Part shown: in pieces, positions 3,937 through 57,600 of the stretch
How the letters are laid out: each line of letters opens with the position of its first letter
Position numbering within the stretch: the stretch's first letter is position 1
Origin: Acidobacteriota bacterium
Lineage (GTDB): Bacteria; Acidobacteriota; JAAYUB01
Reading direction: 5' to 3'
Length of the DNA stretch: 64,000 nucleotides
Assembly (NCBI GenBank): GCA_018001935.1
Contig: JAGNHB010000018.1
Span: 14,286 to 78,285 of the forward strand
Translations under genes and position numbers: made by a program
Notes under the pieces: generated by a model
What the model was told of the DNA's origin: nothing
What the model saw: only the letters and a program-made list of their open reading frames with translations
Database searches by the model: none

Positions 3937-6843
<2,907 letters not shown>

Positions 6844-6860
<17 letters not shown>

Positions 6861-7866
6861 GCAGCCGGAACGCGGGGAGGGCGGCGAGCATCCCCTCGTC
6901 CTCCAGGTCGAGGCCGCCCCGTTGCGCCACACGGACGACCCCCGGCATCTCGTGGAACGCGCCCGCGGGGTCGTGCAGCAGGATCTCCGGCCGCTCGTCG
7001 ATTCCGGCCTCGGAGCGGATCTCGGCGAAAATACCCCCGTCCAGGCGGATCTCCTCGTCCAGCGGGGCGCCGGCCACCGTGCGGAGGATGTAGTCCTCCA
7101 GTTTCCGCGGGTTAAGCAGCGCCGTGCGGTGCGAGAATACCGCCGTCAACCGGAAACCCGTCAGGGCCGGGCGGGAAACCGGTCCCCCGGGGGAGGGCGC
7201 CGCGCCGCAGGCCACCGGCGGCACGCTCCCGGTATCGCGTCCGCGGGGCGGGGCGGGGGTGACGGCCCCGGGGCAAGGGCCCGGGGCGCCGGCGTCGCCG
7301 GGGGGGGGCGGGGCACTCCGGCCCCCGTCAGCCCGGGGCGGCCTTTCCCGAAGGCAGAAAACGGTGGTCCGGTGCGGCCCCACGTGCACCCACGCCAGCG
7401 GGACGCCGCCGGGCAGACCGGCTTCCCGCGCCCGCGTCAGCCCCGCCGCCAGGGTGAAGTGCGGGGCGGGGGCGACGAGGGCGCCGGGGAGCTGGCGGAG
7501 CGCCTCGAGCTGGAGACCGGGGAAGGGGCGGTTCCGGTCGTGGTGGTACAGGTCCGCGACGCGACCGCCCGAGTCCAGGACATGGGAGAGGACCTGGCGC
7601 TCCGCGGACGGGGCGGCGTCGTCGAACCCCGGGGGGAGGTCCGAGCAGAGGGCCACGAGGCAGGCCGCGGGGCGTTCCGCCGCCGGCAGGCCCCGAAGGA
7701 AGGCGCCGAGGGGGACGCGTTCCTGCCGGCGGCCCGTTGGCACGCCGGGAGGGTCGAAGGGCGGGGGGCCCGGGAAGGATCGCCGGAAGGCGAGGTCGTC
7801 CTCCCGGACCAGGGTGAAGAGGGTCTCTTCCTCGAACAACCGGATGAGCAGGACGGCACAATCCAT
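6844..7866 (-). CDS. hypothetical protein with internal Pro/Gly-rich low-complexity insert
   Basis: ORF with conserved-looking N- and C-terminal segments; no family recognised. Confidence 0.45.
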
Positions 7867-8039
7867 GGATCAGGCAGGTCTCCCGTGCGATTTCGACCGG
7901 CGACGGGGAAACTGTAGCAGATTGGCGGGGGAAAGGGAAGGGGGCCCGACCGGTTCGGACCCCCTGAGGTTCCTCTGGTATGACGAAGCATCCGGGGTCG
8001 AGGGGTTGTCCTGCCTCCGACCTCGTCCGCTTCGCCCAC

Positions 8040-11484: not shown

Positions 11485-14349
11485 CTACTCCAGCTCCAGG
11501 CCGGGGTAACAGCCCAGGGCGGAGCCGTCCAGCGGGAGGATCCGGAGGTCCCCCGCCAACGGCTGGGTGCTCTCCGCCCTGATCCAGGCCACCTCCGGCG
11601 CTTCCGCCCCGAAGAGGTCCTCCAGGGAGGCCGACAGGACGGCCCCCGCCGGGAGGGTCGCCGCGTGGGCAGCACGTTGCGTCCCGGCGGCGTTGAAGCC
11701 CCGCAGGGTGACCTCCGCGGTGGACGCCGACACGTTGGTGAGCCGGAGCCGGGACACGGAAACCCCGGGTGTGCCCGTGAGCGGGAAGCAGAACTTCTTC
11801 AGACCGCTTTCGAAGGCCTCGAGGCCGTCGAAGCGGAAGGGGGCCGTCCGGGAGACCATGAGTTCGAAGCCCATCATCCGACGGGCGCCGTCCAGCCGGA
11901 ACCAGGCCGCCCCGGGGTAGTGGCCGCCCAGCACGGCCCAGACCTCGCGGGTGAGCTGCTGCCGGCCGTAGAGGCCCACGTAGGCGGTGGAGAGGGGGTT
12001 GCCGTCACGGTCGCGGATGTCCACGGTGCAGGTGTTGCCGGCGTTGTCCAGGTTGGTGAAGGTCACCCCGGTGAACCACTCGGCGTCGTCCGGGACCTCG
12101 TTGAAGACGAGGGTGAAGAGGGCGGAAGCGCCGGCGGTCTCCCCGTCCTTGGCCGACGCGTTGAGCGGGCGCGCCGGCAGCCCCGCGAGCCCCTGGTCGC
12201 CCAGTTTCCCGAAGAGTTCGAAGCCGAGGAGGGGCGTCTCGGCGTGGGCCCGGACGTACCGGATCCGGCCGGGGTCCTCGAGGTCGGCGAAGACCTGTTC
12301 CACCAGGCGGACCGCCTTGCCGTTCCCGGGAAGGAGGACCGACCGGGTGGCCAGTTTCTCGCCGGAGTCGGCGTAGGCGTCCAGGTCGGCCTGGACGGGC
12401 CCCGTGCCGGGGTTGACGAGGGTGATCCCCGTGTAGAAGGCCCCGGACTGTCCCGGGGAGACGAAGACGTAGGGGAAGACCAGGTCCGTGTCCCCGTCCG
12501 TCTCGTCGAGGGGAAGGGTCACCAGGGCCTGCCCGTCGGCGGTCCCGAAGGCCAGCACCCCCGCGAGGGCGGTGCGGGTGGAGATCGTCATCCAGGGGTC
12601 GCGGGCGAGGGTTTCCGGCGTGAAGTCGGCGGCGGCGTCCAGGGTGAACTGCTCGCCGGCCCCCAGACTGTCCAGGGTCCGGGTTTCGGCGGGCTGCCCG
12701 TCGGCCCCGTAGGCGTCGAAGCGGACCGGCCCCCCTACGGCGCCGGTGTTCACCAGGGTCAGCCGGGTCCACCAGCCGGGGGTCCCGGCGAGGTGGGCCA
12801 CCCGGTAGACCCGGTTGACGGTGAGGGTGACGGCGGCGCTGTCGGCGTGCCCGTAGGCGTTGCCGACCCGCACCCAGTAGACGGCCGTCTGCCGGGGCTT
12901 GACCTTGAGGGTGGCGGACGTGGCGCCGGAAACGGGGGTGGAGACGTCGCCCGCGGGGCCCGTGTACCACTGGTAGGTCAGCGGGTTGGTCCCCGTGGCC
13001 GTCACGCTGAGGGTTACCGACTGCCCGAAGCTGACCTCCTGGGAGCCGCTCTGGCTGGTGATGGCGGGCGGGACCGGGGGGGCGCCGCCCTGCTGGACCG
13101 TGTGAATCAGGGTCTGGAGGCCGGCGTTGAGACGAACGGAGCCCGTCCGGGGAACCGGGTCGTTGTTGGGGTCCACGGCGAACTGGACGGTCCCGTTGCC
13201 CGAACCGCTGTTGCCGCTGGTGATGTGGACCCAGGGGCTGTTGGTCATGGCGGTCCAGGTGCACCCAACGCCCGCGCTCACCGTGAAGCTCCCCGTCCCC
13301 CCGGTCCACCCCGCCGCGGACTGGGCGGGGTTCATCTGGTAGGTGCAGTTGGGGTCCACGTCGTAGACCAGGTAGCACACCTCGCACGCCACGATGGCGG
13401 AGGTGTACTTGATCCGCATGTAGCCCCCCTCGCCCCAGCCGGCTCCCCAGCTGTTCCGGAGGTAGAAGACGCCCTCGGCGTCGTTCCAGCCCACGAGGGC
13501 GATGGCGTGGTTGGTGGGGGTGTCGTAGCACGGGTTGGAGGAGCAGGCGGTGTTGGTGTCCTCGTAGATGCCGCCGCTGTACGCCTGGAAGGCACTCCCG
13601 GCGTAGACGGCGGCGTCCACCACGCCGTAGGTCAGGATGGCGGTCTTGATGGCGTCCACGTCGCCGCAGGGGACACGGTACCAGCCGGAGAACCGCGTCA
13701 CGGGGTCGCTCCAGTGCGTGCAGCTGCCGGGGTCGTTCTGCTGGTAGGGGAAGAGGGACTCGTCGCAGACGCCGTAGTCCACCAGGGCCTGAAGTTCACT
13801 GTAGGTGTAGTCCGCGCCGCTGCAGCCGTAGAAGTGGCTGCGGTACTCGGACAGGCGGCCCAGGCACCAGATGATGTAGGACTCGGAGAAGTCGGCGCAG
13901 TTGGCGTCGAAGCGCCCCGTGGCGAAGTTGTAGACCCCTTCCGCGGCGGCGTTGGCGCCGAAGGCGTAGCAGGAGCCGCAGCCGCCCTGGTTGCGGACGG
14001 GGCCGATGTAGGCGTGGCCGTTGACGTTCCGCCAGTCGAACTGGGCGGGGAGGCTCAGCTTGCCCAGCACGCCCTGCAGCGGGCCGGCGTCGGATGGCGC
14101 GGCCGGGTCGGCGGGCGTCGCCGGGGGCCGGCGGCTGAGGAACGCCCGCTTCTGTTCCGCCGGCATGTCGTAGACCCAGTTCCGGTCCACGGTGAACCGG
14201 TAGCCGTTGGCCTCGATCTTGGACCGGAGGGCGTCGAGGCTGTCGTCGTCGGCGAAGGGGAGCTTCGGCGACCCCTGGGCGGCGAGCGGGGCGGCCAGGG
14301 ACACGAGGAGGAGGAACCAAACGGCGGGGCGGGGGAAACTGGGCTTCAC
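11485..14349 (-). CDS. secreted papain-family (C1A) cysteine peptidase with Ig-like domain and about 480-aa C-terminal repeat module
   Basis: catalytic motifs QGGCGSCYAFG, NHAIALVGW, NSWGAGWGEGGYMRI; GTG start at 14349 with GGAG RBS and signal peptide VKPSFPRPAVWFLLLVSLAAPLAAQG; the ORF continues upstream only as 5' read-through. Confidence 0.85.
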   Translation of the reverse strand: MKPSFPRPAVWFLLLVSLAAPLAAQGSPKLPFADDDSLDALRSKIEANGYRFTVDRNWVYDMPAEQKRAFLSRRPPATPADPAAPSDAGPLQGVLGKLSLPAQFDWRNVNGHAYIGPVRNQGGCGSCYAFGANAAAEGVYNFATGRFDANCADFSESYIIWCLGRLSEYRSHFYGCSGADYTYSELQALVDYGVCDESLFPYQQNDPGSCTHWSDPVTRFSGWYRVPCGDVDAIKTAILTYGVVDAAVYAGSAFQAYSGGIYEDTNTACSSNPCYDTPTNHAIALVGWNDAEGVFYLRNSWGAGWGEGGYMRIKYTSAIVACEVCYLVYDVDPNCTYQMNPAQSAAGWTGGTGSFTVSAGVGCTWTAMTNSPWVHITSGNSGSGNGTVQFAVDPNNDPVPRTGSVRLNAGLQTLIHTVQQGGAPPVPPAITSQSGSQEVSFGQSVTLSVTATGTNPLTYQWYTGPAGDVSTPVSGATSATLKVKPRQTAVYWVRVGNAYGHADSAAVTLTVNRVYRVAHLAGTPGWWTRLTLVNTGAVGGPVRFDAYGADGQPAETRTLDSLGAGEQFTLDAAADFTPETLARDPWMTISTRTALAGVLAFGTADGQALVTLPLDETDGDTDLVFPYVFVSPGQSGAFYTGITLVNPGTGPVQADLDAYADSGEKLATRSVLLPGNGKAVRLVEQVFADLEDPGRIRYVRAHAETPLLGFELFGKLGDQGLAGLPARPLNASAKDGETAGASALFTLVFNEVPDDAEWFTGVTFTNLDNAGNTCTVDIRDRDGNPLSTAYVGLYGRQQLTREVWAVLGGHYPGAAWFRLDGARRMMGFELMVSRTAPFRFDGLEAFESGLKKFCFPLTGTPGVSVSRLRLTNVSASTAEVTLRGFNAAGTQRAAHAATLPAGAVLSASLEDLFGAEAPEVAWIRAESTQPLAGDLRILPLDGSALGCYPGLELE

Positions 14350-14580
14350 GGGATCACTCCGTCGGGGGATTTGGCGCCCGGGTGGGCAACCGTGCATTCT
14401 ACAACACCGGGTTCCGGGGTGGTGAGGCAAAAGCGGGGTGAACCGAAAAAACGGGCGAACGCCTGTGCGAGCTTGGCGCCAAGACCAGGCGGACCCGGAT
14501 CTGTCCCGCCAAGGAGCCAGGCTCGCAACGCAACGAAGGGAAGGGGGTTGCAAAAATGTCCATCGATCCGAAATTCGCCC

Positions 14581-14609
14581 TTGACCGGGGCGGGAAACGG
14601 GGGTATCTT
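14581..14609 (+). promoter_or_regulatory. candidate sigma70-type promoter (TTGACC, 17-nt spacer, TATCTT) for the 14654 gene
   Basis: cTTGACCggggcgggaaacgggggTATCTTcc, about 45 nt upstream of the AGGAGG RBS and ATG. Confidence 0.45.
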
Positions 14610-14653
14610 CCTTTTGAAAAAAACACGCAGGTTTCATCCTGTGACAGGAGGTT

Positions 14654-15406
14654 GTGATGAGGAAGCTTGTATTGGCCCTGTTCGTCGCCCTTTGCCTGAC
14701 GGCCTTCGTGGTGGGCATCACCCCCGAGGAGAAGCGCCAGTTCGACCTGGAGCACAGCGGTCACGGTTCCTCCCACCAGGTCGGGCCGGGGCTCCTGGGC
14801 GCCCACGCCCTGATCTTCTCCGAGGAATTCGAGGGCGCGGTCCCGCCGGCCGGCTGGACCATGGTCAACAACGCGGGGGGCGCGGTGGTCTGGAACACCA
14901 ACACCTCCTTCAGCGATGGAAACTTTACCGGCGGGGCGGGCAATTGCGCCGAGGCCTGCAGCGACTGTGTCGGGACCGCCGAGTTCGACGTCGAACTCCG
15001 GACCCCCGTCATCAACTGCACGGGCGTCACCAACGCCACCCTGACCTTCAACGCCAACTACCAGAACTTTGCCAACTACGATTTCTTCGCGGTGGACGTG
15101 AGCAACGACGGCGGGACCACCTGGAACAACGTCCTCTCCTGGAACGAGGACCACGGCGGTTTCGGGGCCCTGCCCGGCGTCCCCGTCAACCTGAACATCT
15201 CGGCCTACGCCGACAACCAGCCCAACGTCATGATCCGCTTCCACTACTGGGACCCCAACACCGCGGACTGGGACTGGTACGTGCAGGTGGACAGCGTGGC
15301 CGTCAACGGCGACCAGGCCCCCATCCCCACGGTGTCGCCCGCGGGCCTTCTCGGCCTGGTGGCGGTGCTGGCGGGCGCGGGCTTCCTGGTCTGGCGCCGG
15401 CTGTAA
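14654..15406 (+). CDS. secreted protein with PEP-CTERM-like C-terminal sorting signal
   Basis: N-terminal signal peptide; C-terminus PIPTVSPAGLLGLVAVLAGAGFLVWRRL (P-rich motif, TM helix, RR tail); AGGAGG RBS. Confidence 0.7.
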   Translation: MMRKLVLALFVALCLTAFVVGITPEEKRQFDLEHSGHGSSHQVGPGLLGAHALIFSEEFEGAVPPAGWTMVNNAGGAVVWNTNTSFSDGNFTGGAGNCAEACSDCVGTAEFDVELRTPVINCTGVTNATLTFNANYQNFANYDFFAVDVSNDGGTTWNNVLSWNEDHGGFGALPGVPVNLNISAYADNQPNVMIRFHYWDPNTADWDWYVQVDSVAVNGDQAPIPTVSPAGLLGLVAVLAGAGFLVWRRL

Positions 15407-15678: not shown

Positions 15679-17076
15679 TCAGGGGACCTCGCCCGAGGCG
15701 GCAGCGGGGTTTCCATTCCGGGGCGGGGCCGGCGCCCACGGGACCATGACGGAGACGGGGCCGTGGAAGGTGCGGGCCCCGGTGTCCTCGACGTCCTCGA
15801 GGCGGTACCAGTAACGGGTGCGGGGGAAAACGCCCGGGTCCGTGAAGGTGTACGCGGCCCCGCTGATCTCGGACTGTCCCCGGCCCGGGATGAGGGTCTC
15901 CGTGATCCGGGCGTAGGGCCCTTCTTCGGATTCCGCCCGCCAGAGGTGAAAGCCCGCGTTCCGGATCTCGGTTTCGGTGACCCAGTCCAGCCGGACCCCA
16001 CCCTGGCACGGCAGCGCCTCGAAGGAAACCAGTTCGACCAACAGCGGGGTGAGGTCCCGGGCCAGGCAGATGCGAAGGTCACTGCCGGAACCCGTCGGCG
16101 ACCCGCCGTAATACATCCGAAGGGACCCGTCTGGCGCGAGAATCACGTCCGGGGTGTAGGCCCTGCCCGCCCGGTAGGTCGGTGCACTGCCCCCCACGGC
16201 GAAGAGGGGGTTGTTGGCGTCCTTCGTCCAGGTGAGGCCGTCCGGGGACGAGGCGTAGCCGATCCCCTCGTGCGAGGCGGACTGGCCGCCGGAGTACCAG
16301 AGGTGGTAGCCGTTCTCGTCGCGGAAGACGGTGCCGAAGGTGGCGTAGGCGGCGTCCCACGACCCCGACCCGCCGTAGGGGAGAACCGCGCTCGTCGAGT
16401 AGGCGGTCCAGTCGATCCCGTCGCTGGAGTAGGCGAGGCCAAGGCTCTCCGTACCGCCGGAGGTCCCATCGTAGTACATCACGAAGCGGTAGTCCCAAGG
16501 GTCGGTTCCGCTGTTGGACGCGCCGGGTTGGTAGAGCACGCAGGCGGGACCGTAGCTGCCGCGGTTCCAGCCCGTCCCGGACATACCGGTGATGAGGGGG
16601 TTCGACGAACTCTGCGTGACGGCCTGGTCGTCGTCCCAGTCGATGCCGTCGCTCGATTGGGCGGTGTGGAGGTCGTCGAGGGTGTAGGTCATGTTGGACG
16701 TCCAGTACCAGACCCGATAGGGCGCTCCGCCGGTGATCCCGAACCCGTCGGCATCGTAGAGGACTTTGGCGTGCCCGGGGTTGGTCAGGCCCGTGGCGGA
16801 AACGGACGAACCCCAAGCCAGGCCGTCGGAGGACGTGACCATCCGGAGGGTGCCGCTCGCCCCGTACCACATCCGCCAGGTCGCCCCCCCCGACACGCCG
16901 AATGCCTCGTAATCGTAAAGAACGGAGGGGTAGTCCGCCCGCGAACCCGGGTCGACGAGCGGGTTGGCGGTGTAGTCCTCCCAGGCCGTGTAGTCGTGGT
17001 CCGCCCGGAGCGAGCCCACCAGGCAGAGGAAGGCGAGAACGAAGGCTGCCGACCGGATTTCACGCTGGGTTTTCAC
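15679..17076 (-). CDS. secreted BNR/Asp-box repeat beta-propeller protein (sialidase/glycosyl-hydrolase-like) with C-terminal beta-sandwich domain
   Basis: repeated Asp-box-like SSDGIDW, YSSDGIDWT, SSPDGLTWTK; GTG start at 17076 with GGAGG RBS and signal peptide. Confidence 0.7.
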   Translation of the reverse strand: MKTQREIRSAAFVLAFLCLVGSLRADHDYTAWEDYTANPLVDPGSRADYPSVLYDYEAFGVSGGATWRMWYGASGTLRMVTSSDGLAWGSSVSATGLTNPGHAKVLYDADGFGITGGAPYRVWYWTSNMTYTLDDLHTAQSSDGIDWDDDQAVTQSSSNPLITGMSGTGWNRGSYGPACVLYQPGASNSGTDPWDYRFVMYYDGTSGGTESLGLAYSSDGIDWTAYSTSAVLPYGGSGSWDAAYATFGTVFRDENGYHLWYSGGQSASHEGIGYASSPDGLTWTKDANNPLFAVGGSAPTYRAGRAYTPDVILAPDGSLRMYYGGSPTGSGSDLRICLARDLTPLLVELVSFEALPCQGGVRLDWVTETEIRNAGFHLWRAESEEGPYARITETLIPGRGQSEISGAAYTFTDPGVFPRTRYWYRLEDVEDTGARTFHGPVSVMVPWAPAPPRNGNPAAASGEVP

Positions 17077-17137
17077 GGGTGAAACGACCTCCGAGATTCG
17101 TGATGATGAAGGTTGATGCCCTCGAAAAAAGTCCTTT

Positions 17138-17223
17138 TCTCTCACGGAGGCACGGAGAGATGCAAATCGTATTTGATAGAATCAGCAATCCTTATATTTC
17201 TTCTCCGTGCCTTCGTGAGATCG
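17138..17223. promoter_or_regulatory. inverted pair of the conserved motif TCTCCGTGCCTCCGTGAGAGATGCAAATCG, 60-145 nt upstream of the 17076 gene
   Basis: the reverse copy at 17138-17169 is 30/32 identical to 37182-37213; a diverged forward copy lies at 17199-17223. Confidence 0.5.
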
Positions 17224-20619: not shown

Positions 20620-20680
20620 GCAGCCGCTGAAGCGCCTACCAGCCTTCAGCCTAACAGCCTTCAGCCTATCTCGCCTCCCC
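20620..20680. repeat. CCTTCAGCCTAACAG heptamer-pair repeat overlapping the stop of the 20666 gene
   Basis: cgcctaccagccttcagcctaacagccttcagcctatctcgcc; the TAG stop is inside cagcctatc. Confidence 0.8.
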
Positions 20681-21496
20681 CGCGAGGACCACGTCGGCGG
20701 GAAGGGCGCCGGAAGAAAGGGCCGTGGCCAGGACCCGGGCGTCCAGGAGGGACGGCAACCCGGAGATCATCCCCTGGTCGGTTATCCGGTCGCGGATGAC
20801 GGGGACGGAGAGGGCCCGGCCGTCCAGGACGATGGCCAGCCCCCGGCCGAGGCTCTTCGAGGTGGCGTCCCCGAAGATTCTCGCACCGGCAGGGTCCAGC
20901 GTGAACAGGATGACCGGCCGGCCGTAGGCGTTCTCCGGGGTATCGACCCGGGCGTCCTTCAGGTGCTCCCCGACGAGGACCGGCAGGGATTCCACCAGGA
21001 CGAACAGCCGCTCGGCCTCCCTCCCCTCGCCGACGAAGGGGACCGCCACGTAGCCGGCCGGGTGCTTTCCCTTGAACCGGGCCCGCAACTCGGCTTCCGG
21101 GAGCGGGCCCGGCGCCTCCGGGTGGGCGAGGTGAAACGACAGCAGGGCGCGGGTCGTCAGGAGACGTTGCACCGCCTCCCGGTCGACGGGGGCGTGGAGA
21201 AACACCCGCAGCCGATCCCGGCTTCCGGGTGCCCGGAAGACCTGGGCCTGCTGGCCGTATCGTTCCAGGCGGGACCTCAGGACGGCGCAGGTCCGGTCGA
21301 GGGTGCGGGTGACGGCTTCGGCGGAAAGGGCCGGGTCGAGCCTTACCTCCAGTTCGAGGCGGACCGACGCCTTTTTCCCGCCGGTCGTCGCCTGCGGCGT
21401 GCCGGGCGCTTCGCCGCCGTGCTCGGCTAGAGCCCCGGCCCACAGGGTCGCGCCGAAGAGGATCGCCGCCAATCCATGGAGCCCGTTTCTGTTCAT
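20666..21496 (-). CDS. periplasmic protein resembling the SecD P1-head domain, with no SecD/SecF membrane domain
   Basis: signal peptide MNRNGLHGLAAILFGATLWAGALA; C-terminal LAIVLDGRALSVPVIRDRITDQGMISGLP...SGALPADVVL matches the SecD periplasmic head consensus; GGGGAGG RBS; the ORF continues upstream only as read-through. Confidence 0.6.
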   Translation of the reverse strand: MNRNGLHGLAAILFGATLWAGALAEHGGEAPGTPQATTGGKKASVRLELEVRLDPALSAEAVTRTLDRTCAVLRSRLERYGQQAQVFRAPGSRDRLRVFLHAPVDREAVQRLLTTRALLSFHLAHPEAPGPLPEAELRARFKGKHPAGYVAVPFVGEGREAERLFVLVESLPVLVGEHLKDARVDTPENAYGRPVILFTLDPAGARIFGDATSKSLGRGLAIVLDGRALSVPVIRDRITDQGMISGLPSLLDARVLATALSSGALPADVVLAGEAR

Positions 21497-21556
21497 CCCA
21501 CGCCTCCCCACCCGTCGGCGGACCTTGCCTTGATGTCGTCTCTCATCATAGCACAT

Positions 21557-21572
21557 CCGTATTCTGCGGTTC
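21557..21572. repeat. solo copy of the CCGCAGAATACG inverted-repeat motif overlapping the stop of the 21571 gene
   Basis: ccgtattctgcggttcagtg is the reverse complement of the motif flanking the GxxExxY gene. Confidence 0.6.
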
Positions 21573-23403
21573 AGTGAAGGATGGCGGCCAGGTCGGCGGC
21601 GGTGACGCGGCCGTCGCCGTCGGCGTCGCCGCCGGAGCCGCCGGGGGGCAGGTCGGGGACGTTCCCGGCCAGGAAGGCGGACAGAAGGACGAGGTCGGCG
21701 GCCGTGCGCCGGCCGTCGCCGTCCACGTCCCCGGGGTGGGGTTGCGACACCCGCAGGCGGGACGGGCGGGCCGCGTCCTGGTAGACGGTGTTTACGGCCG
21801 GCCACGCGGGCCCCGCGACGTACAGGGGCCCGCCGTCGTTGCGGTTCAGATCGAAGTGCGGGTAGTCGGCGGAGCAGACCGCGATCCGCAGGCGGTGACC
21901 CGGCAGGACCGTCAGCGCCAGGTCCTGGAGCGTCACCTCCACCTCGTAAACCGCGCCCGGCGCCATCAGGTGCTCCGCCGTGAAGCCGTCCCGGAAGCGC
22001 AGGCGCCGGATCCCCTGGGCCAGGATGATCGACCGCCCGTCGGGGTGGACATCGGTGAGCCGGACGCAGAGGTCGGTGTCCGTCCGGTCGGAGGAGAAGA
22101 ACAGGCCGGCTTTCACGCTGCCGTTGATCCGGAGGGGGACGGCCAGGGACGGCGTCGACCAGGTTCGCACGTCCGGCCGGCTCTCCACCGGTCCCAGGTC
22201 CTGGGGGCCCACCGGGAGGTCCGGGGCGAAGGGGTCGAATCGGGACCCGCCCAGGGCCGGGGTCGGGTCGGCGGGGTCGTAGGTGAAACGCTCCGGGGCG
22301 CCGTCCGACGGCGGGGGCGACCCGGTCAGCGTCCCGCCGGGTTGGAGGTAGAGGGCCGTCTCCACCCGCGCACGGTCGGACCAGCTCTCGCCGGCGACCC
22401 AGGCGTCGGCCCCCACCTGGTAGAAGGTGACGGGCGGCTCCGCGACCCACCCGTTGGCGACGTTCCGCAAATGGTAGTCCCAGAAGCGCACGGTTTTCGC
22501 CTCCGCCACGCCGGCGGCTGCGGGGAAGGTCAGAATTCCCTGCTCCGCCCGGTCCACCTCCCCGTGGAGCCAGGGGCCGAAGAGGAGGCGGTGCTGTTCC
22601 CGGGCCGGCGCCGCGCTGCCTTCCCGGAGGTCGCGGAAGCAGCGGAGGACGTCGTCGGGGAAGTGGTCGAACCAGCCGCCGATGACGTAGCAGGGGACGG
22701 CGATCTCCGCCGCCATGTCGGAATTGGCTTCCATGAGCGCCCAGAAGGCGTCCCGCATCGGGTGGGCGAGGATGAAGCCGGCGTCCGTCAGGCCGAGCTT
22801 TTCCAGGCTCTCCACGTGCTCTTTCCGGTAGTCGCCGCCGAAGTAGTAATCGGAGTACTTGAACAGGAAATCCTTGACCCGCGGGACGCAGCAGACCAGG
22901 TGGGGCGGGCGGTGCCGGGCGGTCTGGAACTGGATGTAGCCCAGGGCGGAGGAGCCCCAGGTCCCCACGCGGCCGTCGCACCAGGGTTGGGCGGCGACCC
23001 ACTCCACGGCGTCGTAGCCGTCAAGCCCGCGGTCGTAGCCGGGGACGGCGGCGGCCGAGGACCCGTAGAAGCCCCGCCAGTCCAGCACCACGTAGTGGTA
23101 GTCCGCCGAGAGGGGGAACATCCCGCCGCTCTGGGGCGGAAAACCCGCCATGGCCCGGTAGAAGTTCTTGTTGTAGGGCGTTTGGATCAGGATCACCGGC
23201 CGGGGGACGGGGGTGGCCCCGTCGAAGGTGTGGACGTCCGCCGCCAGGGCCTTCCCGTCCCGGGTGGGAATGGACACGGCGGTCCAGGTGAGCCCGCGCG
23301 GGGAGGAGGGCCCCGCGCCGGCGCCCGTCCCGGCCGGCAGCGCCCCGCCGGCGACGCACAGGGAAAACAGCAGCACCCGGGTGAAGCGGTGTCGCGATAA
23401 CAA
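21571..23403 (-). CDS. CocE/NonD family (S15 X-Pro dipeptidyl-peptidase-like) hydrolase with C-terminal dockerin
   Basis: VILIQTPYNKN and GRVGTWGSSALGYIQ; C-terminal DVDGDGRRTAADLVLLSAFLAGN plus DADGDGRVTAADLAAIL dockerin repeats; TTG start at 23403 with GGGAGG RBS and signal peptide. Confidence 0.75.
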   Translation of the reverse strand: MLSRHRFTRVLLFSLCVAGGALPAGTGAGAGPSSPRGLTWTAVSIPTRDGKALAADVHTFDGATPVPRPVILIQTPYNKNFYRAMAGFPPQSGGMFPLSADYHYVVLDWRGFYGSSAAAVPGYDRGLDGYDAVEWVAAQPWCDGRVGTWGSSALGYIQFQTARHRPPHLVCCVPRVKDFLFKYSDYYFGGDYRKEHVESLEKLGLTDAGFILAHPMRDAFWALMEANSDMAAEIAVPCYVIGGWFDHFPDDVLRCFRDLREGSAAPAREQHRLLFGPWLHGEVDRAEQGILTFPAAAGVAEAKTVRFWDYHLRNVANGWVAEPPVTFYQVGADAWVAGESWSDRARVETALYLQPGGTLTGSPPPSDGAPERFTYDPADPTPALGGSRFDPFAPDLPVGPQDLGPVESRPDVRTWSTPSLAVPLRINGSVKAGLFFSSDRTDTDLCVRLTDVHPDGRSIILAQGIRRLRFRDGFTAEHLMAPGAVYEVEVTLQDLALTVLPGHRLRIAVCSADYPHFDLNRNDGGPLYVAGPAWPAVNTVYQDAARPSRLRVSQPHPGDVDGDGRRTAADLVLLSAFLAGNVPDLPPGGSGGDADGDGRVTAADLAAILH

Positions 23404-28660: not shown

Positions 28661-28666
28661 GGGCGA

Positions 28667-32530: not shown

Positions 32531-32539
32531 GATATGTTC

Positions 32540-32925
32540 CTCCACTCGGAGCTGTTTTTCGATGGGCATGGGATGTTTATCGGAGTCGGAAAAGGACGAA
32601 AGGACCAAAAGGACCAAAAGGACCAAAGGGACGGCAAGAACCGAAAAACATGAAAGATATGAAAGACATGAAAGACATGATCCCCAACCTCCAGCCCTGG
32701 CCTTCCGCCTTGTGTCTGCAACATCTTTCCGCCTCGTGTCTCCGACAAGCCTTCCGCCTCGTGTCTCCCGCAAACCTTCCGCCTGTTTCCCTTGCGATGC
32801 CGATTGCGATGCCGATTGCGACTGCGATTGCGACTGCGATTGCGATACCGATACCGATACCGATTCCGACCCCGATGGGAAGATCCCCGGACCTTCAGCC
32901 TAACAGCCTTCAGCCTAACAGCCTA
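32540..32925. repeat. composite repeat element: AAAGGAC x5, ATGAAAGAC x3, approximately 21-nt CCTTCCGCCTCGTGTCTCC x3-4, GATKGCGA/GATACC hexamer array, CCGATGGGAAGATCCCCGGACC linker, TTCAGCCTAACAGCC x2
   Basis: read directly; fills the whole 390-bp spacer between macA and the ATPase gene; the macA TAG stop lies in the terminal cagcctac. Confidence 0.9.
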
Positions 32926-34176
32926 CTTCAGCTGTATCCGGTCCGCGTCGCCCAGGCGGGCCGTGTCGGAGAGGATCACCCGGTCGCCGGGGTTGAGGCC
33001 GCGAACCACCTCGATGGTGTTGACGGAGGTGCGGCCGAAGGTGACGGGAACCCGGACGGCAACCGTGCCGTCCCCCTCGAGGCGGAAGACGCTCGCCGTG
33101 CCGTTCTCCTGGGCGTAGGCGGGTCGGCCGACGTACACCACGTCGTCGAGGCGGACGATCTCCACGGTCCCGTCCACGCTGAGGTCGGGGCGCGCACCCT
33201 TGGGCAGTTCACCCTCGAGGGCGATGTCGAGGGTCACCGTGCCGTTGCGGACGGCGGGGTCGATCCGGGCCACGCGCCCGGGGATGACGCCGTTGCGGGT
33301 GTCCACCGTGGCGGGCTGGCCCACGGCCACGTCGCGGGCCTCGGTTTCCCGGACCTTGATCTCGGCCTTGAGCCGGCCGGGGTTGGCCACCCGGGCCAAA
33401 TTGGCGCCGGCGACTACCTGCTGGCCGACTTCCACGGGGACCTCCTGGATCACGCCGTCGATGCCGGCCCGCACCCGCAACGCGGCCAGTTGCTCCTCCC
33501 GGATCCGGCACTGGGCGCGGACCTGTTCAACCCGGGCGCGCTGGACCTCCAGCTGGGCCTTCATGGCGTCGGCGCCGATGGCCAGCCGCTTGACCTCGAT
33601 GGCGTGGCGGGTGTTGAGTTCCTCGGCCCGGAGGCGGGAGCGCTTGAGCTCGACGTCGGAGATGAGACCGTCCCGGGAAAGCTCGGAATTCACGTCGGCC
33701 TGCAGCTTGGCCTGGCTGAAGTCGGACAGGGCGCTGGCCTCCACCGCCTGCTGGGTCAACCGCTGGCTCTCCAGCTGGACCTGCAGGTTGTTGAGTTCCG
33801 CCAGGGAGGCTTTGAGCTGCATCCGGGCGTCCACGACGGTCTCCTCGAGTTCGGGGTTGCTCAGGACCAGGATCTCGGTGTCGGCGCTCACCCGCGCCCC
33901 CGGTTTCACCAGGATCCGCACCACCCGCCCGGACGTCAGGGCCGGGACCAGGGCGACTTCCTCGGTGACCAGGGTGCCCACGCCGCGGACCTGCCGCAGC
34001 ATCCGCCCGCGCTGGACGGTGTCGATCCAGACGGACGCCCTTTCCACCGAGGGAACCGCGGGTTTCATCCGCAGCACGAACCACGCCCCCGCGGCCACGG
34101 CGCCTCCCACCAGGAGGAAAACGGCGATCTGCCGAATCCGCTTCTTCGCCTTTGCCGGTCGATGTTGAATGTCCAT
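32923..34176 (-). CDS. HlyD-family periplasmic adaptor (MacA-like membrane fusion protein)
   Basis: N-terminal TM, long coiled-coil region, beta-barrel and MP domains. Confidence 0.85.
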   Translation of the reverse strand: MDIQHRPAKAKKRIRQIAVFLLVGGAVAAGAWFVLRMKPAVPSVERASVWIDTVQRGRMLRQVRGVGTLVTEEVALVPALTSGRVVRILVKPGARVSADTEILVLSNPELEETVVDARMQLKASLAELNNLQVQLESQRLTQQAVEASALSDFSQAKLQADVNSELSRDGLISDVELKRSRLRAEELNTRHAIEVKRLAIGADAMKAQLEVQRARVEQVRAQCRIREEQLAALRVRAGIDGVIQEVPVEVGQQVVAGANLARVANPGRLKAEIKVRETEARDVAVGQPATVDTRNGVIPGRVARIDPAVRNGTVTLDIALEGELPKGARPDLSVDGTVEIVRLDDVVYVGRPAYAQENGTASVFRLEGDGTVAVRVPVTFGRTSVNTIEVVRGLNPGDRVILSDTARLGDADRIQLK

Positions 34177-43949: not shown

Positions 43950-44300
43950 CTTCGCGATCTTGGCGCCTTGGCGAGAGCCGACCCGGATCTTGATCTCGTA
44001 AAGGCGCAAAGATCGCAAAGGAAGACTGCAAAAGGAAGGGAGAAGATCGAGGGTTGCGGGCTGTAGTCGACAAGGGGGCCGCCGATCCCGGTCGCGAGCG
44101 CGTCCCCGGTCGAGTGCGACAGCGCGTGCGAGTGCGGCTGCGACAGCGCATGCGATTGCGATTGCGATTGCGATTGCGACGGCGATTGCGACGGCGATTG
44201 CGATACCGATAGCGATTGCGATACCGACCCCGATACCGATACCGACCTCGATGGGAACCCCTCCGGACCTACAGCCTACAGCCTATAGCCTACAGCCTAA
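43950..44300. repeat. composite repeat element: GCAAAG block, long GCGAYWGCGA/GATACC hexamer array, CTCGATGGGAACCCCTCCGGACC linker, CCTACAG x4
   Basis: read directly; lies immediately downstream of the 44312 gene. Confidence 0.9.
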
Positions 44301-44311
44301 CCCGGCGGCGG

Positions 44312-45715
44312 TCAGGCGGGGTCGAGTTCGGAGCAGAACGGGACCACCTTTCCGCCCGGTTGGTCGTCACCGAGGCGCTCGTCGATGCGGACGGTGATCC
44401 TGACCCCCTTCCCGAAAAGCGCCCGGAGCCGCTTCGCGATGGCGGCGGGGTCCAGGGGGCAGCCCGGGGCGGGGCGGAGGGCGAGGGTGCACGACCCGTC
44501 GCGGTGCTGCACGAACGCGTGCTGCAGGACGATCCACTCCCGGATGACCCGGCCGATGTCCACCGGCCCCACCCGGCTGCCGTCCGCCGCGCGGAACGTC
44601 ACCGGGGCCCGGGCCTGGAGGTCCAGCAGGCGCGGGACGGGGTCGGCCCCCGGCGGGTCGCTCCAGGAGAGGCGGGCGACGTCGCCGGTCCGGTAACGGA
44701 GCAGTGGGAGGTAGGGGTTTCGCCCGCCGGTGACGCTGATCTCGCCCGGTTCACCCTCGGGGACGGGTCGGCCGTCCGCGTCCACGATCTCGACGTAGAG
44801 GTCGGCGGGCAGGAGGGTGAAACCGGGGGCGTCGGGGGCGGCGTAGCCGATGACGCCGGTCTCCGTAGTGGCGTAGGTGTCGATCACCGGACAGCCGTAC
44901 GCGTCCTCCAGTCGCCGCTTCAGGCCGGAATCCAGGGCGACCGCCGAGCTGATCATGGCGGCGGGCTTCACCGGGATTTCCCAGGCCAGCAACCGGGCGT
45001 ATCCCAACGGGTCGCCCGTCAGGAAGAGGGGCGCAAGGTCCGCGAGGAAACGGCGGGCCGCCGCGGGGGTCCAGGCATGCGGGTGCAGGTTGACCTTGGC
45101 GAAGGCGGCGTTGCCCCATACCGCGAAGACGGTGGCAAAGACGACCGTGGTTCGGTGGGCGCTGAGGTTGACGCAGGCCGTGACCGTCTCGTCGAAGGAA
45201 AGCCGGACGCCGTGGCGTTCCAGCACGAATTCCAGGAAGGCGTGGTTCGTCGCCATGGTGACGGGGTGGTGGGGGACGTAGAGGGCGTGGCCGGTCACCC
45301 CCGAGGTCTCGTAGGTGATGAGGCGGGAAAGGTCGGCGTCGCGGGGAACGATCCGCTCGAGGCGGGCGGCGAGGTCCGCACGGCGCATCGTGGGTACCCG
45401 GGCCCAGTCGCGGGCCAGATTCAGCCCTTTCGGCAGCGCGTCCGCGAACCAGGGCGAGCGGCGGCGCATCGCCCGCGCCCAGGCGCGGATCGCGGCCGGG
45501 GGGCGGCCGTCGCCGGGGCGGCGGCCTTCCCGGATCGACCGGCGCACGACGTCCACGGCGGGGAGGTCTCCCGGGAGCAGCCGGTCGCCGGTGGCGAAGT
45601 TCCACGCCGGGGCGTCGGGGTGCTGGAGAATCCCCCGGAGCCGCTCCCAGGCCCCGACCGTGATCAGGGGGTTTCGCTCTCTCTGCTCAGCGGGGATGAA
45701 CTGTTCCGTCTCCAT
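44312..45715 (-). CDS. phenylacetate-CoA ligase-like adenylate-forming enzyme (PaaK/CapK/F390-synthetase family)
   Basis: adenylation-domain core YETSGVTG (AMP-binding TSGTTG-like); other conserved segments match the family only loosely; ATG at 45715. Confidence 0.7.
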   Translation of the reverse strand: METEQFIPAEQRERNPLITVGAWERLRGILQHPDAPAWNFATGDRLLPGDLPAVDVVRRSIREGRRPGDGRPPAAIRAWARAMRRRSPWFADALPKGLNLARDWARVPTMRRADLAARLERIVPRDADLSRLITYETSGVTGHALYVPHHPVTMATNHAFLEFVLERHGVRLSFDETVTACVNLSAHRTTVVFATVFAVWGNAAFAKVNLHPHAWTPAAARRFLADLAPLFLTGDPLGYARLLAWEIPVKPAAMISSAVALDSGLKRRLEDAYGCPVIDTYATTETGVIGYAAPDAPGFTLLPADLYVEIVDADGRPVPEGEPGEISVTGGRNPYLPLLRYRTGDVARLSWSDPPGADPVPRLLDLQARAPVTFRAADGSRVGPVDIGRVIREWIVLQHAFVQHRDGSCTLALRPAPGCPLDPAAIAKRLRALFGKGVRITVRIDERLGDDQPGGKVVPFCSELDPA

Positions 45716-45789
45716 GCCTTGCCTCGCTATCCCAACCCGGATGAACCGGAAAAGCACCACGGATGAATACGGATCACGCGGACTCACCA

Positions 45790-46539: not shown

Positions 46540-46559
46540 GCCAACCTCACTCGGAGTAT

Positions 46560-47030: not shown

Positions 47031-47031
47031 G

Positions 47032-51499: not shown

Positions 51500-51830
51500 T
51501 GTCACCGGCGGTTTCGAGGCGAAAGGACGAAAGGACCAAAAGGACCCAAAGGACCAAAAGGACCGCGACAAGCCGGTGCCGGATGCAACGAGACCGTAAC
51601 CGGCATTGCCATCGCTGTGGGTATCGCTGTCGCCGTCGTCGCTGTCGCCGTCGTCGCAGCCTCCGATCCCGTCTCCCTCATCGTCAGCCCCTGGCCGTCC
51701 TTTGCGTCCCTTTGGTCCCTTTGGTCCTTTCGTCCTTTGATTCCGACCTCGATCCCGATTGCGACAGCGACCCCGATCCCAACCCCGATGGAAAATCCGA
51801 AAAGAACCGGTGTACGTCCCGAAACATAGG
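51500..51830. repeat. composite repeat element: AAAGGAC array, GC-rich hexamer block, inverted GTCCTTT array, GATYCCGA hexamers, CCCCGATGGAAAATCCG linker
   Basis: read directly upstream of the AAA+ gene. Confidence 0.85.
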
Positions 51831-54213: not shown

Positions 54214-54240
54214 GTGGTGGCGCAAGCTTCAGCTTGCGCG
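54214..54240 (+). terminator. hairpin gcgcaagc-ttca-gcttgcgc after the 54199 gene (no T-tract)
   Basis: perfect 8-bp stem; between convergent genes. Confidence 0.35.
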
Positions 54241-54494
54241 GGAACTCAATCGGCGGCTCTCTGTCTCCGGAAGGCCTTTCCCGGCCGCTGCCGCCCAGAT
54301 CGGACCGATCGGTCGGATCCGACGGATCGGTCCGATGCTGCCCCTCCCCGTCCTCGGCCGTTCAGGCTCCGGCGGCGTGCGGGTCCTTCGCAACCCGGGC
54401 CGTCTGGGGCCGACCGCGCCGCTCCGCGGACTGCGCGGCGCGGGGAAAGCGGCGCTCCGGCAACCTGCGCACCGCACTCCGCAGCGGAGACGGC

Positions 54495-54650
54495 GGCGGC
54501 GATCCCGATTGCGACAGCGATCCCGATTACGACAGCGAGAGCGATTGCGATACCGATACCGATACCGATGGGAACCCCTCCGGACCTACAGCCTACAGCC
54601 TTCAGCCTTCAGCCTTCAGCCTAAACCCCTTCAGCCTATCCCCTACCTTC
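54495..54650. repeat. composite repeat element: GATCCCGATTGCGACAGC hexamer array, CCGATGGGAACCCCTCCGGACC linker, CCTACAG/CCTTCAG heptamers
   Basis: read directly; the giant gene's TAG stop lies in the terminal ccctacc. Confidence 0.9.
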
Positions 54651-57600
54651 CCGGCGGTGCGGCCTCCTTCACCACGGCGCCGTCGGTGTCGCTGAGGACG
54701 AGAATGGCGAAGCGGTCCGTGCGGTCCAGGTCGTCGGTGCTCAGCGAGGCGTAGTCGAAGCGCCCGCGCAGGTCGGTGTAGCCGTCCTTGTAGAAGTTGA
54801 CGGAGCCGTCCTTCCACCGGGCGTACACCTTCACGTAGGCCTTGGACACGGGCCGGCCGCCGGCCTCGCGGGTCACCTTGACCTGCCCGAAGGCCTCCAC
54901 CACCTGCACGGTGAGCGCGCCGCCGTGGCAGGGGGTGGTCCGGGTCACGCCGCCGCCCTCGGCCGAGACCACCACGTCGGCGTTCTGCAGGCCGGGCGGG
55001 AGGTCCACCACGGTCCGGGTCGCCCCCGGCGCCGGCTTGACCACACGTGTCTCCTTTGCCCTCACGACCGCGGCCTGCCCGGCGGTGGCCCCCCCGAACG
55101 GGTCGCGGGAGAAGAGCACCTCGGCGTCCGTGGGGTGGAAGCCCAGGCGGATCTCCGGCACGTTGCGGTGCTCCAGGACGATCTTCCGCCCCTCCACCTT
55201 CAATTCCAGCGAGGGTTCCGTGGACGCCAGCGCCTCCTGCCGGCGGTTGCGGTCGTTGCGGTCGGGGGCCGCCGCACCCGCGCGCCCCTCCATCTCGTCC
55301 AGCTGTGCCAGGACGTCGCCGAAGCGTTCGGCCCAGCGCTTGACGGGGTGGCTTTTGTAGCCCTGCGCCAGGGCCCGGGCCGTGGCGGGCGTGTCGGTGA
55401 AGAAGGCCAGCCAGGCGGCGCAGTAGTCGTACTGGAGCCGGGTGGCGAGCTTGCCCGCATCCACCTTGGCGAAGAGGTCCCGCCCCTCGGGGATGCGGTC
55501 CTGCAGGAGCAGGTAGTAAGCCGCCTCGAGCCGGTCGGCGTCGGTCAGTGTGGGCCTGAAGGCCAGCAGGTTCAGGAAGGCCTGGTACTGGGCCGACAGG
55601 CGGTCGTTGGGGATGGTCCGCTGCTTCCCGAAGGTGTGGGCGCGGGCGTTGACCAGGGGCTCGTACTCCAGGTGCCGGTAGGCGCCGATCGCGGCGGGGT
55701 CGAGATCCAGGAGCGGGCTCTGGAGGAAGGGCCCCAACCGGTCCCGGAAGTCGGGGCGGTGGAGGAGGAATTCCCGGATGGCGGGCACGTCCTTGTGGCG
55801 GACGCCGTAGGAAAAGAGGTCGGCGTCGTAGACGTGGCGCCGGGTCAGGACGTCTAGGGCGGCCCGGTAGAAGGCCGCGTCCTTCACCCGCCAGGCGATC
55901 CGGCCGAGGCGGACCCCGTTGAGGTTCTCTTCGCCCAGGTAGCGCAGGACATCCTCGGGCGGCGCGTCCTGGGAGATGTAGGACCAGGAGGTTTTATCGA
56001 TGACGCTGGGCGTCTCCACCACATGCAGGGGCTTCGCCTCGCAGGCGGCCAGGGGGACGCCGCCCGCCGAGACCTGGGCCGGGTAGTGGGCGAACTCCCC
56101 GGGCTTCGGGAAGTAGAAGAAGTACATGAGCTGCCTCGTGGCGTAGGGGTCCAGCAGGACCGGGACGCTTCGGGTGACCCTGCCGGCGCTGACGGGGACC
56201 GCTCCCCGCGGCACCTGGAGCAGCACGTCCAGGCGCTTGCGCAGCCCGCCCGGGTTGGTCAGGACCACGCGGCAGCCGTAGACCACCCGCGGCAGGAACT
56301 CGCCCTCCACGTACTTCTCCTGGGGCTCGCCGTTGATCATGACGGTGTCCTCATCGGGGCGGAAGAAGCGCTGGGTGGCCAGGATGGAGGCCCCCGCGGG
56401 CTTGCTCTCCCCGGCTTCCCGGATTTCCCGCACCACGGCCAGGGCGGGACTCGCCGCCTTGAGGGTGAAGGCGGTCCCCTCCGCTTTCGTCTCGGGTTTT
56501 TCGGCCTTGAAGGGGACGTCCAGGACCGCCAGGGCGGCCAGGGTCTCGGTCAGGCTCCCCGGCGCCTCCAGGACGTGGGGCGAGCGGAAGCCGTCGCCGC
56601 CCTCGTGGAGGACGAAGTCGAGCCAGAAGCGGTTCGGGCGGACCCGCCCGGGGGACTCGGCCGCGGGGGCGAGCCGGTAGTAGTCGCTCTCGGCCAGTTC
56701 CCTGGTCCGCTCCACCTGGCGGAAGGCGGCCGGGGCGTCCATGCGCCGGGCCTTCATGGCGGCGGGCGCCGGGCGGGGCGCGGACGGCTGCATGGCGGCC
56801 TTCTCCTTCTTGGCGAAATAGCCGTCTCTAGAGCTTTCATCCGCCTCTTCACTCGCCAAGGGCGCGGACGACGCGACCGTGATCTGGTCCGCGGAGATGC
56901 CGGCCTCCGGCATGCCAGAAATCTGGTCCTCCGCGGCTTCACGTGCCTCCTCGAGCCCCAGCCGGTCGCCGGCGTCGAGGCCCTCGATGCCCAGGGCCGT
57001 GTCGAAGCGGAGGACCAGTTCGTCCACGGAGGGAGGGTTCGACTCGAGGTGTTTTCGAATCCAGTCCGCCACCGCCTTGCGCTCCTCGGGGACGCGCACC
57101 GCCAGGAACGCCTTCTCCAGGGTGTTGAGCCGTTCGAAGGCGAAGGGTCGCCGGTACGCGGCCAGGTCCTCCTCCAGCAGGAACTTGTCGATGAAGGTCT
57201 TGGTGAGCTTGTTCTTCAGGTAGGGGCGCACCACCCGGTCGAACCAGGGGCGGTCCTTGAAGTAGAGGAAGAGGTGCAGCTCGTGGGAGGCGCAACGGCC
57301 GTAGGCCTCCGCCCGCTCGGCTTCGCTCATCTTGTCCCAGCGCGGGAGGAAGGCGAACTCGCCGAGGGCGCCGTCGGGGCTGACGGCGGAGAAAAGCCGG
57401 TAGGCCCGGTCGAGGTCGTCCACCAGGACCAGTTTGGCGCTGGTGAGGTCGGCGATGGCGACGGACTCGCCCGCGGCGAGGGGCCGGACCGCCTTCTGCT
57501 CCGTGAAGCGCTTCGCGGGGTCGAGCCCCTCGGCGAGGCACAGGTCGCGGAAGGCGGCGGGCGTCTCGGGAAAGGGGAAGACCCGGCAGGCGGACCGTCG

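Follow-up and report, generated by a model that had tools for sequence, protein, structure and literature searches.

G-rich heptameric repeats occur at many intergenic loci in Xanthomonas (GGGAATC) and Nostoc (GGGGAYT), where the G-rich strand is sense within 50 bp of a stop codon or overlaps it, or is antisense just upstream of an open reading frame (ORF); some form inverted pairs, between co-directional ORFs, and most are transcribed (Rehm et al. 2015, PMC4692102). Here we describe tandem arrays with the sense-strand unit (TAGGCTG / AAGGCTG / TTAGGCTG)n, hereafter GGCTGWA, that adjoin the 3′ ends of five genes in an uncultured Acidobacteriota bacterium, whose genome comes from a metagenome assembly. 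The stretch analysed, referred to as the window, is a 64-kb segment of contig JAGNHB010000018.1 with 68% GC, to which all window counts refer. Like heptameric long simple-sequence repeats in general (STRR-like or Rehm-type), the window arrays consist of at least three head-to-tail 7-nt units at dispersed non-coding loci, have the G-rich strand next to a stop codon and vary between strains, and the positional rule of the Xanthomonas and Nostoc repeats is also that of GGCTGWA. They differ from the Xanthomonas and Nostoc repeats in the unit itself, which holds only GG runs (weak G-quadruplex potential) and carries a stop triplet, in being found in many phyla and viral contigs instead of one genus, and in that window copies are joined to a linker and hexamers.

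Other described repeats share some of these features. Direct repeats of TAACTGA, described in Beggiatoaceae, Cyanobacteria and Bacteroidetes, have a stop in each of the three frames and overlap the stop codon of the gene upstream (MacGregor 2015, PMC4679880). They resemble GGCTGWA in being patchy across phyla with no evident mobilising mechanism, but they lie mostly a few nucleotides upstream of start codons, are AT-rich and have been proposed to act in translation initiation. The cyanobacterial STRR heptamers are dispersed intergenic 7-bp tandem units that also occur inside operons (hupS-hupL) and can form hairpins when inverted; a role in transcript stability or translational coupling was suggested but is unproven (PMC2670836). 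They have other units and belong to another phylum. To our knowledge, sharing of stop codons is not a described feature of STRR. In Geobacter metallireducens, families of four to five tandem units of 7-8 nt occupy dozens of intergenic sites, where many form inverted pairs, and were read as DNA-binding sites of a global regulator upstream of operons, with no link to stop codons reported (PMC2700814). These inverted pairs resemble the inverted 9-mer and 6-mer pairs of the window, although the units differ. A search of a full-text library found the GGCTGAA/GGCTGTA array sequence in no relevant context.

REP and BIME elements of enterobacteria and pseudomonads are also dispersed and intergenic, lie just after stop codons as well as inside operons, and have units containing GTAG. 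Liang, Rudd and Deutscher are said to have found in 2015 that REPs within about 15 nt of a stop codon affect translation of the upstream gene. However, REPs are imperfect palindromes mobilised by RAYT transposases, whereas the window heptamers are directly repeated, lack a palindrome and do not fold significantly at loci 3 and 5. Identity with REP/BIME was rejected: the TAG-type units do contain GTAG, but they form no 20-40 nt palindrome, and at loci 3 and 5 the fold is no better than that of shuffled sequence.

Heptamer arrays at gene ends in the window

Tandem Repeats Finder called arrays at five loci, with a period of 7 (and 8-nt variants) and 3.4-5.6 copies (Table 1). The original prediction had listed four of them and held that the adjoining minus-strand genes end with a TAG provided by the repeat. 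The coordinates proved right: the '+' strand CTA at 6844-6846, 20666-20668, 32923-32925 and 54643-54645 are the TAG stops of minus-strand ORFs, three of them inside called arrays and the fourth, that of the 2157-aa gene, in a degenerate first unit 5 nt beyond the called array (54585-54638). The fifth array (44268-44299) lies outside that list. Relative to the stop codon, the offsets of the five arrays were 0, 0, 0, 0 and 12 nt; in other words, in 3′ intergenic spacers of 318-494 nt, four of the five arrays begin at the stop codon, for which the chance under uniform placement is roughly 0.01 per locus. The TAG-bearing strand was sense to the adjoining gene at all five. Motif counts revealed that the 12 copies of CAGCCTA in the window, the '+' strand form of the unit together with CAGCCTT, are all on one strand and all within the five arrays, and that the 6 copies of CAGCCTT are on the same strand in the same intergenic arrays, no copy of either being located in the conserved part of any protein. 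TAG terminates 8 of the 28 window genes, and arrays are found at 4 of these 8. The association of the arrays with stop codons is therefore non-random and beyond chance.

Since neither 7 nor 8 is a multiple of 3, the sense strand presents TAG or TGA in all three frames within 21 nt, and it follows that an array may touch a stop codon or include it without harm, yet can enter an ORF by a few codons at most. The antisense strand (CAGCCTA/CAGCCTT) contains zero stop triplets, because of which long antisense ORFs run through the arrays. We consider it probable, at about 0.62, that the arrays are non-coding heptanucleotide repeats lying 3′ of genes with the stop-bearing strand sense, and that the shared TAG is each gene's own ancestral stop. 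Everything 3′ of the shared TAG would then be untranslated repeat; the proteins are unchanged, as judged from the comparison of C-termini given below.

The four ORFs ending in TAG are real genes, with GC at third codon positions (GC3) of ~0.9 over the 3′ 100-250 codons and with homologues. For the ORF at 20666..23002 (778 aa), the stop was indeed in the array, but a codon-position GC plot revealed two genes instead of one, the array-ending one encoding 276 aa. The original prediction had proposed an alignment with repeat-free orthologues, by which shortened or extended C-termini would be seen. The HlyD-like protein ends in ...DRIQLK-stop, in the same column as the ...DR[IV][RQ]L[KRN]-stop that almost every one of 60 inspected orthologue C-termini shows, and most of these orthologues have 417 aa, as in the window. 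The end of the 2157-aa protein, ...VVKEAAPPGR-stop, aligned with ...V[VI]REAAPPKR-stop in most of 116 homologues from other phyla (Planctomycetota, Myxococcota and others). Gene 1 had three database relatives only: L009 (81% identity) has ...AAG CTG TAG at the same position and no heptamers after it, and L007 (83% identity) has its TAG two codons later, again with no heptamers. Gene 2 was without a close orthologue, and its homology to stand-alone SecD-head proteins extended up to residue 271-274 of 276, the conserved domain thus running to 2-5 residues before the stop. Hence three of the proteins end within 0-2 residues of repeat-free orthologues, and in this comparison no repeat-derived C-terminal residues were found for the four TAG genes. 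Element-encoded C-termini could not be upheld for the window, the C-termini being neither shortened nor extended by the array; the arrays give these proteins at most the stop triplet, with no residues gained or lost.

Related strains were compared at two loci, as had also been proposed. At the hlyD locus, AAG TAG is common to the three strains compared (94-100% protein identity), but the arrays after it differ: (GCTGTAG)n in L003, amounting to about seven TAGGCTG units, GGGTTTAGGCTGTAGGCTGTG in L005, and alternating 8- and 7-mers in the window, where they are followed by a linker-hexamer module absent from the other strains. Distant hlyD orthologues (64-74% identity) share the last residue but use TGA or TAA as their stop, and a spacer of 33-51 nt with a ribosome-binding site then leads to the ATG of a MacB-type ABC ATPase. 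The lineage of the window has thus filled the hlyD-macB operon spacer with ~390 nt of repeats, the TAG stop being seen only in the array clade, and the position of array 3 inside this spacer suggests co-transcription. At gene 1, the sequence past the stop differed in all three strains, with a break in synteny exactly at the stop. Synteny across the hlyD array was kept. It was also noticed that ligA lies downstream of gene 1 in the window, compared with an ABC transporter and a PqqD gene in L007. In other samples the short-read contigs break off within the arrays, so that copy number could not be read there; they nevertheless reproduced the gene-TAG-array junctions independently. Unit type and copy number therefore vary among related strains, and arrays are sometimes absent, which shows that they change fast between strains by gain, loss and resizing. 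As to the claim that the elements re-define the stop, it is possible only weakly, since the hlyD TAG is restricted to the array clade but the gene 1 TAG exists without a repeat.

Distribution in other genomes and viral contigs

The pattern GGCTGWAGGCTGWAGGCTG (GGCTGWA x3) was scanned in one-genome-per-species contigs and in viral contigs. At least 120 matches were obtained in the species-representative genomes, compared with about 17 expected by chance, those listed coming from Verrucomicrobiota, Planctomycetota, Acidobacteriota, Gemmatimonadota, Desulfobacterota, Bacteroidota, Nitrospirota, Proteobacteria, Cyanobacteria and others, isolates included. Viral contigs yielded at least 120 matches, often with several arrays per contig, compared with 14 and 25 for two control heptamers with the same bases in permuted order. 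The loci analysed were the 240 matches listed (L014-L133 and L143-L262), with genes called heuristically by ORF length and codon-position GC. Among the matches listed, the 5′ neighbour was a co-directional gene end for 62 of 105 bacterial and 69 of 144 viral arrays, at a median gap of 6-7 nt; the second commonest 5′ neighbour was the start of an opposite-strand gene, and convergent gene ends on the other side of the arrays were a median of 105 nt (bacterial) and 58 nt (viral) away. Over 325 pairs of GGCTGWA array and gene end (Tandem Repeats Finder), the median gap was 5 nt with the stop-bearing strand sense and 58 nt with it antisense (p = 3e-14), and gaps of 1-20 nt, i.e. without overlap, made up 32% and 11%, respectively. 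The view of the original prediction that the elements favour gene 3′ ends is therefore borne out both by these pairs and by the fixed orientation of all five window arrays.

Among the matches listed, period 7 was by far the commonest repeat period. It accounted for 875 arrays in the analysed loci, 511 of them with other units, and 1006 Tandem Repeats Finder rows of the 240 loci had this period, compared with 370 rows for period 9 and 127 for period 6. TGATGAA, AGTCGAG, GGCTAAA and GGATGAA were among the other heptamers that recurred. For heptamers other than GGCTGWA, the small-gap excess in the stop-bearing orientation was confined to overlaps, with 23% vs 22% for gaps of 1-20 nt, and 62% of the other units contained a stop triplet vs 55% expected. 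Stop content as a general property of heptamer arrays was rejected on account of this weak enrichment.

In other taxa, element-encoded C-termini appear to occur. Pfam-supported genes at L019, L021, L038, L062, L121, L123 and L126 (CbiM-PDGLE, FlgD, LpxK, EamA, APS kinase, IspG and ABC ATPase) end in ...(L)KAEG-stop, the stop being a TGA inside (GGCTGAA)n; the first six run 1.5-2.5 units into an array. This part of the earlier claim thus seems to hold outside the window, and was not supported within it.

Three further arrangements were observed. 1) At viral loci L146, L167, L173, L187 and others, the arrays have the opposite orientation, (CAGCCTT)n being located 8-17 nt upstream of start codons (ATG), in pyrimidine-rich leaders with CACCTCC, which is identical, not complementary, to the anti-Shine-Dalgarno sequence. 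2) In other viral contigs, such as L211, an array follows each of several consecutive co-directional genes. 3) An inverted (TWCAGCC)n partner is found 10-40 nt downstream of many arrays in other genomes, at L025, L077, L058, L144, L150, L154, L180 and others, giving stems of 15-35 bp; the L077 hairpin is situated between convergent ORFs, both of which run into its arms. No such inverted partner was present in the window.

This distribution raises the possibility that (GGCTGWA)n is a functional signal just after the stop, a conserved cis-element for universal machinery of bacteria and their phages, which we regard as somewhat unlikely. It could serve as a read-through or frameshift ribosome trap, in RNA polymerase pausing, or through an RNA-binding protein or a weak G-rich structure, and by the last two means it would tune mRNA decay or how strongly the next cistron is expressed. 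The same heptamer in many phyla and viral contigs, well above the permuted controls, points this way, as do the orientation-dependent fit to the stop even at gaps of 1-20 nt, which do not arise by construction, the arrays between co-directional genes and after consecutive genes in L211, their retention inside an operon spacer, and the stop triplet kept by both unit variants. Against it, arrays are absent at 81-83% protein identity and have different units at 94%, as expected of something dispensable with fast turnover; the viral copies upstream of start codons misfit a post-stop role; other heptamers in the same genomes are scarcely richer in stops than expected; and the Xanthomonas GGGAATC repeats lie near stops without any stop triplet. 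The pausing idea is based on the fit of each unit to G-11 G-10 ... T-1 G+1 of the elemental pause consensus. The resemblance of the arrays to the ops element (GGCGGTAG), to the 5′ GTAG of REP and to the RNA polymerase pause consensus is a lead only.

A wider form of this proposal, which we hold to be improbable, would make (GGCTGWA)n a single cross-phylum element of bacteria and phages instead of one among many microsatellites born of slippage, placed 0-20 nt from stops and acting on universal machinery in Acidobacteriota, the Planctomycetota-Verrucomicrobiota group, Desulfobacterota, Bacteroidota, Gemmatimonadota, Proteobacteria and Cyanobacteria alike. Possible actions are those of a tandem RNA polymerase pause site, a three-frame stop trap, or a protein or ribosome platform setting expression of the upstream and next cistrons.

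Another explanation requires neither targeting nor function. Arrays would arise in spacers in either orientation, deletion bias would erode the spacer, and only the stop-bearing orientation would tolerate loss of the native stop. That the small-gap excess of the other heptamers is confined to the overlap class, and that genes of other taxa carry short tails encoded by arrays and differing in length (KAEG, LKAEG), would be expected from such buffering. However, it predicts tails and small gaps and not four tail-less junctions at the ancestral stop, the orientation effect of GGCTGWA is also seen in the non-overlap class, and the window spacers grew instead of being eroded. On balance it appears doubtful.

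Composite copies, folding and other repeats of the window

Loci 3-5 are composite, the heptamers being followed by a unique 20-nt linker and then by a hexamer array (GGTATC/GCAATC)n. On the sense strand the linker reads GGTCCGGAGGGGTTCCCATC; it is identical at loci 4 and 5, and 15 of 20 positions are identical at locus 3. A unique linker and a hexamer array shared by three loci suggest that the composite was copied between loci. The copies diverge past the hexamers and have no common distal end, and arrays 1 and 2 are without linker and hexamers.

Table 1. Positions of the heptamer arrays, composite parts and adjoining genes in the window
Feature	Position	Strand	Description
Heptamer array 1	6823..6852	-	Sense AGG CTG TAG GCTGTAG GCTTTAG GTTTAG; holds the stop of gene 6844..7866
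Heptamer/octamer array 2	20634..20670	-	Sense AGA TAG GCTGAAG GCTGTTAG GCTGAAG GCTGGTAG; holds the gene 2 stop
Heptamer/octamer array 3	32892..32925	-	Sense AAG TAG GCTGTTAG GCTGAAG GCTGTTAG GCTGAAG; holds the stop of the HlyD-like gene
Heptamer array 4	44268..44299	-	Sense TTAGGCTG TAGGCTA TAGGCTG TAGGCTG TAGG; begins 12 nt past the TGA of 44312..45787
Heptamer array 5 with degenerate proximal units	54585..54645	-	Sense AGG TAG GGGA TAGGCTG AAGGGGTT TAGGCTG (AAGGCTG)3 (TAGGCTG)2
Linker copy 1	32874..32893	-	GATGGGAAGATCCCCGGACC ('+' strand); between hexamer and heptamer arrays
Hexamer array copy 1	32792..32869	-	(CGATWS)n
Linker copy 2	44250..44269	-	GATGGGAACCCCTCCGGACC; identical to copy 3
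Hexamer array copy 2	44111..44252	-	
Linker copy 3	54567..54586	-	GATGGGAACCCCTCCGGACC
Hexamer array copy 3	54499..54569	-	
hlyD-ABC ATPase spacer	32531..32922	-	~390 nt, almost all tandem arrays (7-, 6-, 25- and 9-mers)
Gene 1	6844..7866	-	340 aa, lineage-restricted, no Pfam match; TAG 6844-6846
Gene 2	20666..21496	-	276-aa secreted protein resembling the SecD P1-head domain; TAG 20666-20668
HlyD/MacA-type periplasmic adaptor gene	32923..34176	-	417 aa; first gene of the hlyD-macB operon; TAG stop
AMP-binding enzyme gene	44312..45787	-	TGA 44312-44314, outside the array
2157-aa gene	54643..61116	-	No Pfam match; C-terminus ...EAAPPGR-stop at a position conserved across phyla

The composites invite the view that they are non-autonomous mobile elements of the form heptamer-linker-hexamer, the heptamer end of which would insert into TAG or another short sequence like it. 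With a GC content of 68%, tolerated TAGs would mostly be stops, and a terminal TAG of the element would merge with the stop of the gene. Integration of this kind would account for the unique linker common to three loci, for arrays located exactly at the TAG of four TAG genes and 12 nt downstream for one TGA gene, for filled and empty alleles between strains with the break in synteny exactly after the gene 1 stop, and for a TAG at hlyD that is found only in the array clade. Nevertheless, no inverted repeats flanking composites 3-5 and no target-site duplication were recognised, and a shared distal boundary is lacking. Scanning of 26 of the 28 window genes against Pfam revealed no transposase, integrase or other mobile-element gene; the scanned genes are ordinary chromosomal ones, such as ligA, cysC, ABC transporters and kinases. 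In the metagenome contigs of the Joint Genome Institute (JGI), the composite linker was absent save for one chance match in a coding region of a low-GC organism. Furthermore, arrays 1 and 2 do not have the composite form, and as the 8 stop TAGs are among perhaps 100 tolerated TAGs by a rough count, targeting of TAG under-predicts four arrays of five at stops. We therefore judge a mobile composite to be unlikely. A miniature inverted-repeat transposable element (MITE) or another transposon-derived insertion does not fit, composites 3-5 having no flanking inverted repeats and no shared distal end.

Coding on the '+' strand of the composites (32792-32903, 44111-44290 and 54499-54640) was also considered, as the frame would give (Asp-X)n and then DG(N/K)xxGP and stops in the heptamers (e.g. 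ORF 32484..32903). These frames were judged to be non-coding, because GC3 is ~0.5 there vs ~0.9 in genes, the ends differ and no start is conserved.

No element of Rfam matched anywhere in the window at the gathering threshold. The fold of the sense strand at loci 3 and 5 was no better than that of shuffled sequence (z +0.61 and -0.74), the heptamer arrays contain no palindrome, and the units have GG only and no G3+ tracts of the G-quadruplex type, G3+ runs being present only in the flank of locus 1. A scan of 31500-47100 detected no terminator-like site at arrays 3 and 4. An intrinsic (Rho-independent) terminator was accordingly rejected, as no such site exists at these two arrays and array 3 is inside an operon. 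The locus 1 spacer (6526-6843), heptamers excepted, folded into one large hairpin (-170 kcal/mol, z = -4.85) made up of G-rich and C-rich arms, the latter of 14-mers, together with an array of self-complementary 9-mers (GTCAGACCT x 11); this fold is thus due to the 9-mer array and the G- and C-rich arms, not to the heptamers.

Other spacers of the window are rich in 6-, 9-, 14-, 25- and 37-nt arrays, several as inverted pairs. Inverted array pairs at 826-1022, 23542-23667, 31638-31806 and 51522-51738 could form long repeat hairpins; their units are the hexamers TCGGTA/CGATAC and the 9-mers AAAGGACCA/GTCCTTTGG and ATGGGAATT/TCCCATAAT, and the 9-mer units recur at 32590, 46725 and 51522. The intergenic stretch that separates genes 11485..14721 and 15679..17145 contains 2.9 tandem copies of a 37-nt unit (TCAGAGCCGCGCGCGTAAGCAAGCGGCCATTTTCCCC) at 15477-15651 with no spacers, and an inverted partial copy follows 40 nt downstream. 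These copies do not constitute a CRISPR array. As a recurrent motif, GGGGTTCCC was unconvincing (8 matches vs 3.7 expected).

Gene 1 contains a low-complexity insertion of ~55 aa rich in Pro, Gly and Ala (about 7166-7331), which is absent from the relatives with 81-83% identity. The ligA ORF (3937-6525) encodes 862 aa vs about 670 aa for a typical LigA, the match to its adenylation domain is split in two, and towards its 5′ end the ORF has a 21-nt tandem repeat (6397-6481); the extra length may stem from an insertion or from a start called too far upstream.

Origin and meaning of the arrays

If the arrays are non-coding repeats that adjoin ancestral stops, they would probably have been seeded or captured by micro-homology at sequences resembling the unit, and would then grow and shrink by replication slippage. 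The gene ends ...AAGCTG TAG and ...AGCTGAAG TAG, which are older than the arrays or flank them, resemble the unit GGCTG[T/A]AG and suggest this route, and purifying selection on the C-terminus would remove variants reaching further upstream. It is possible that the arrays act on RNA or DNA, by affecting how stable the RNA is, by making RNA polymerase or ribosomes pause, by binding a protein or through a weak G-rich structure.

Several points weigh against this account. Slippage and micro-homology seeding were deduced from four junctions only, and two of these, the ends of gene 2 (GCGAGA TAG) and of the 2157-aa gene (GGAAGG TAG), resemble the unit weakly. Local seeding alone leaves the presence of the same unit at five loci and across phyla unexplained, and random placement followed by selection predicts variable gaps and short tails, not four junctions of zero length. 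As the hlyD outgroups use TGA or TAA, the TAG there may have arrived with the array rather than before it. In addition, gene calls in the cross-genome statistics are heuristic, the overlap class is partly inflated by construction, and this genome is represented by one 64-kb window.

Coincidence or an artefact, with ORFs simply running to the first stop in a repeat, frame errors, or contigs mis-joined at repeats, is very improbable: short-read contigs of other samples do break inside arrays and the sequence after gene 1 does differ among three strains, but the C-termini agree with orthologues to the residue, the gene-TAG-array junctions recur in assemblies made independently from several samples, gene order is kept across the hlyD array, and the positional odds are far below chance.

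The class to which these arrays belong is known but poorly understood, stop-proximal G-rich heptamers having already been published for Xanthomonas and Nostoc. What is new is this heptamer, its occurrence in Acidobacteria as part of a composite with linker and hexamers, and the fact that it recurs in many phyla and in viral contigs. For annotation, the stops embedded in arrays are genuine and the proteins intact, and it should be borne in mind that arrays break short-read assemblies and may mislead ORF callers, as in the merged 778-aa ORF and the long antisense ORFs. Heptameric stop-proximal repeats are now extended to Acidobacteria. If their recurrence reflects function, a widespread and uncharacterised signal would exist at bacterial gene ends; if it reflects mutation and tolerance only, the content of the repeat, with stops on one strand in all frames, would decide where such repeats survive.

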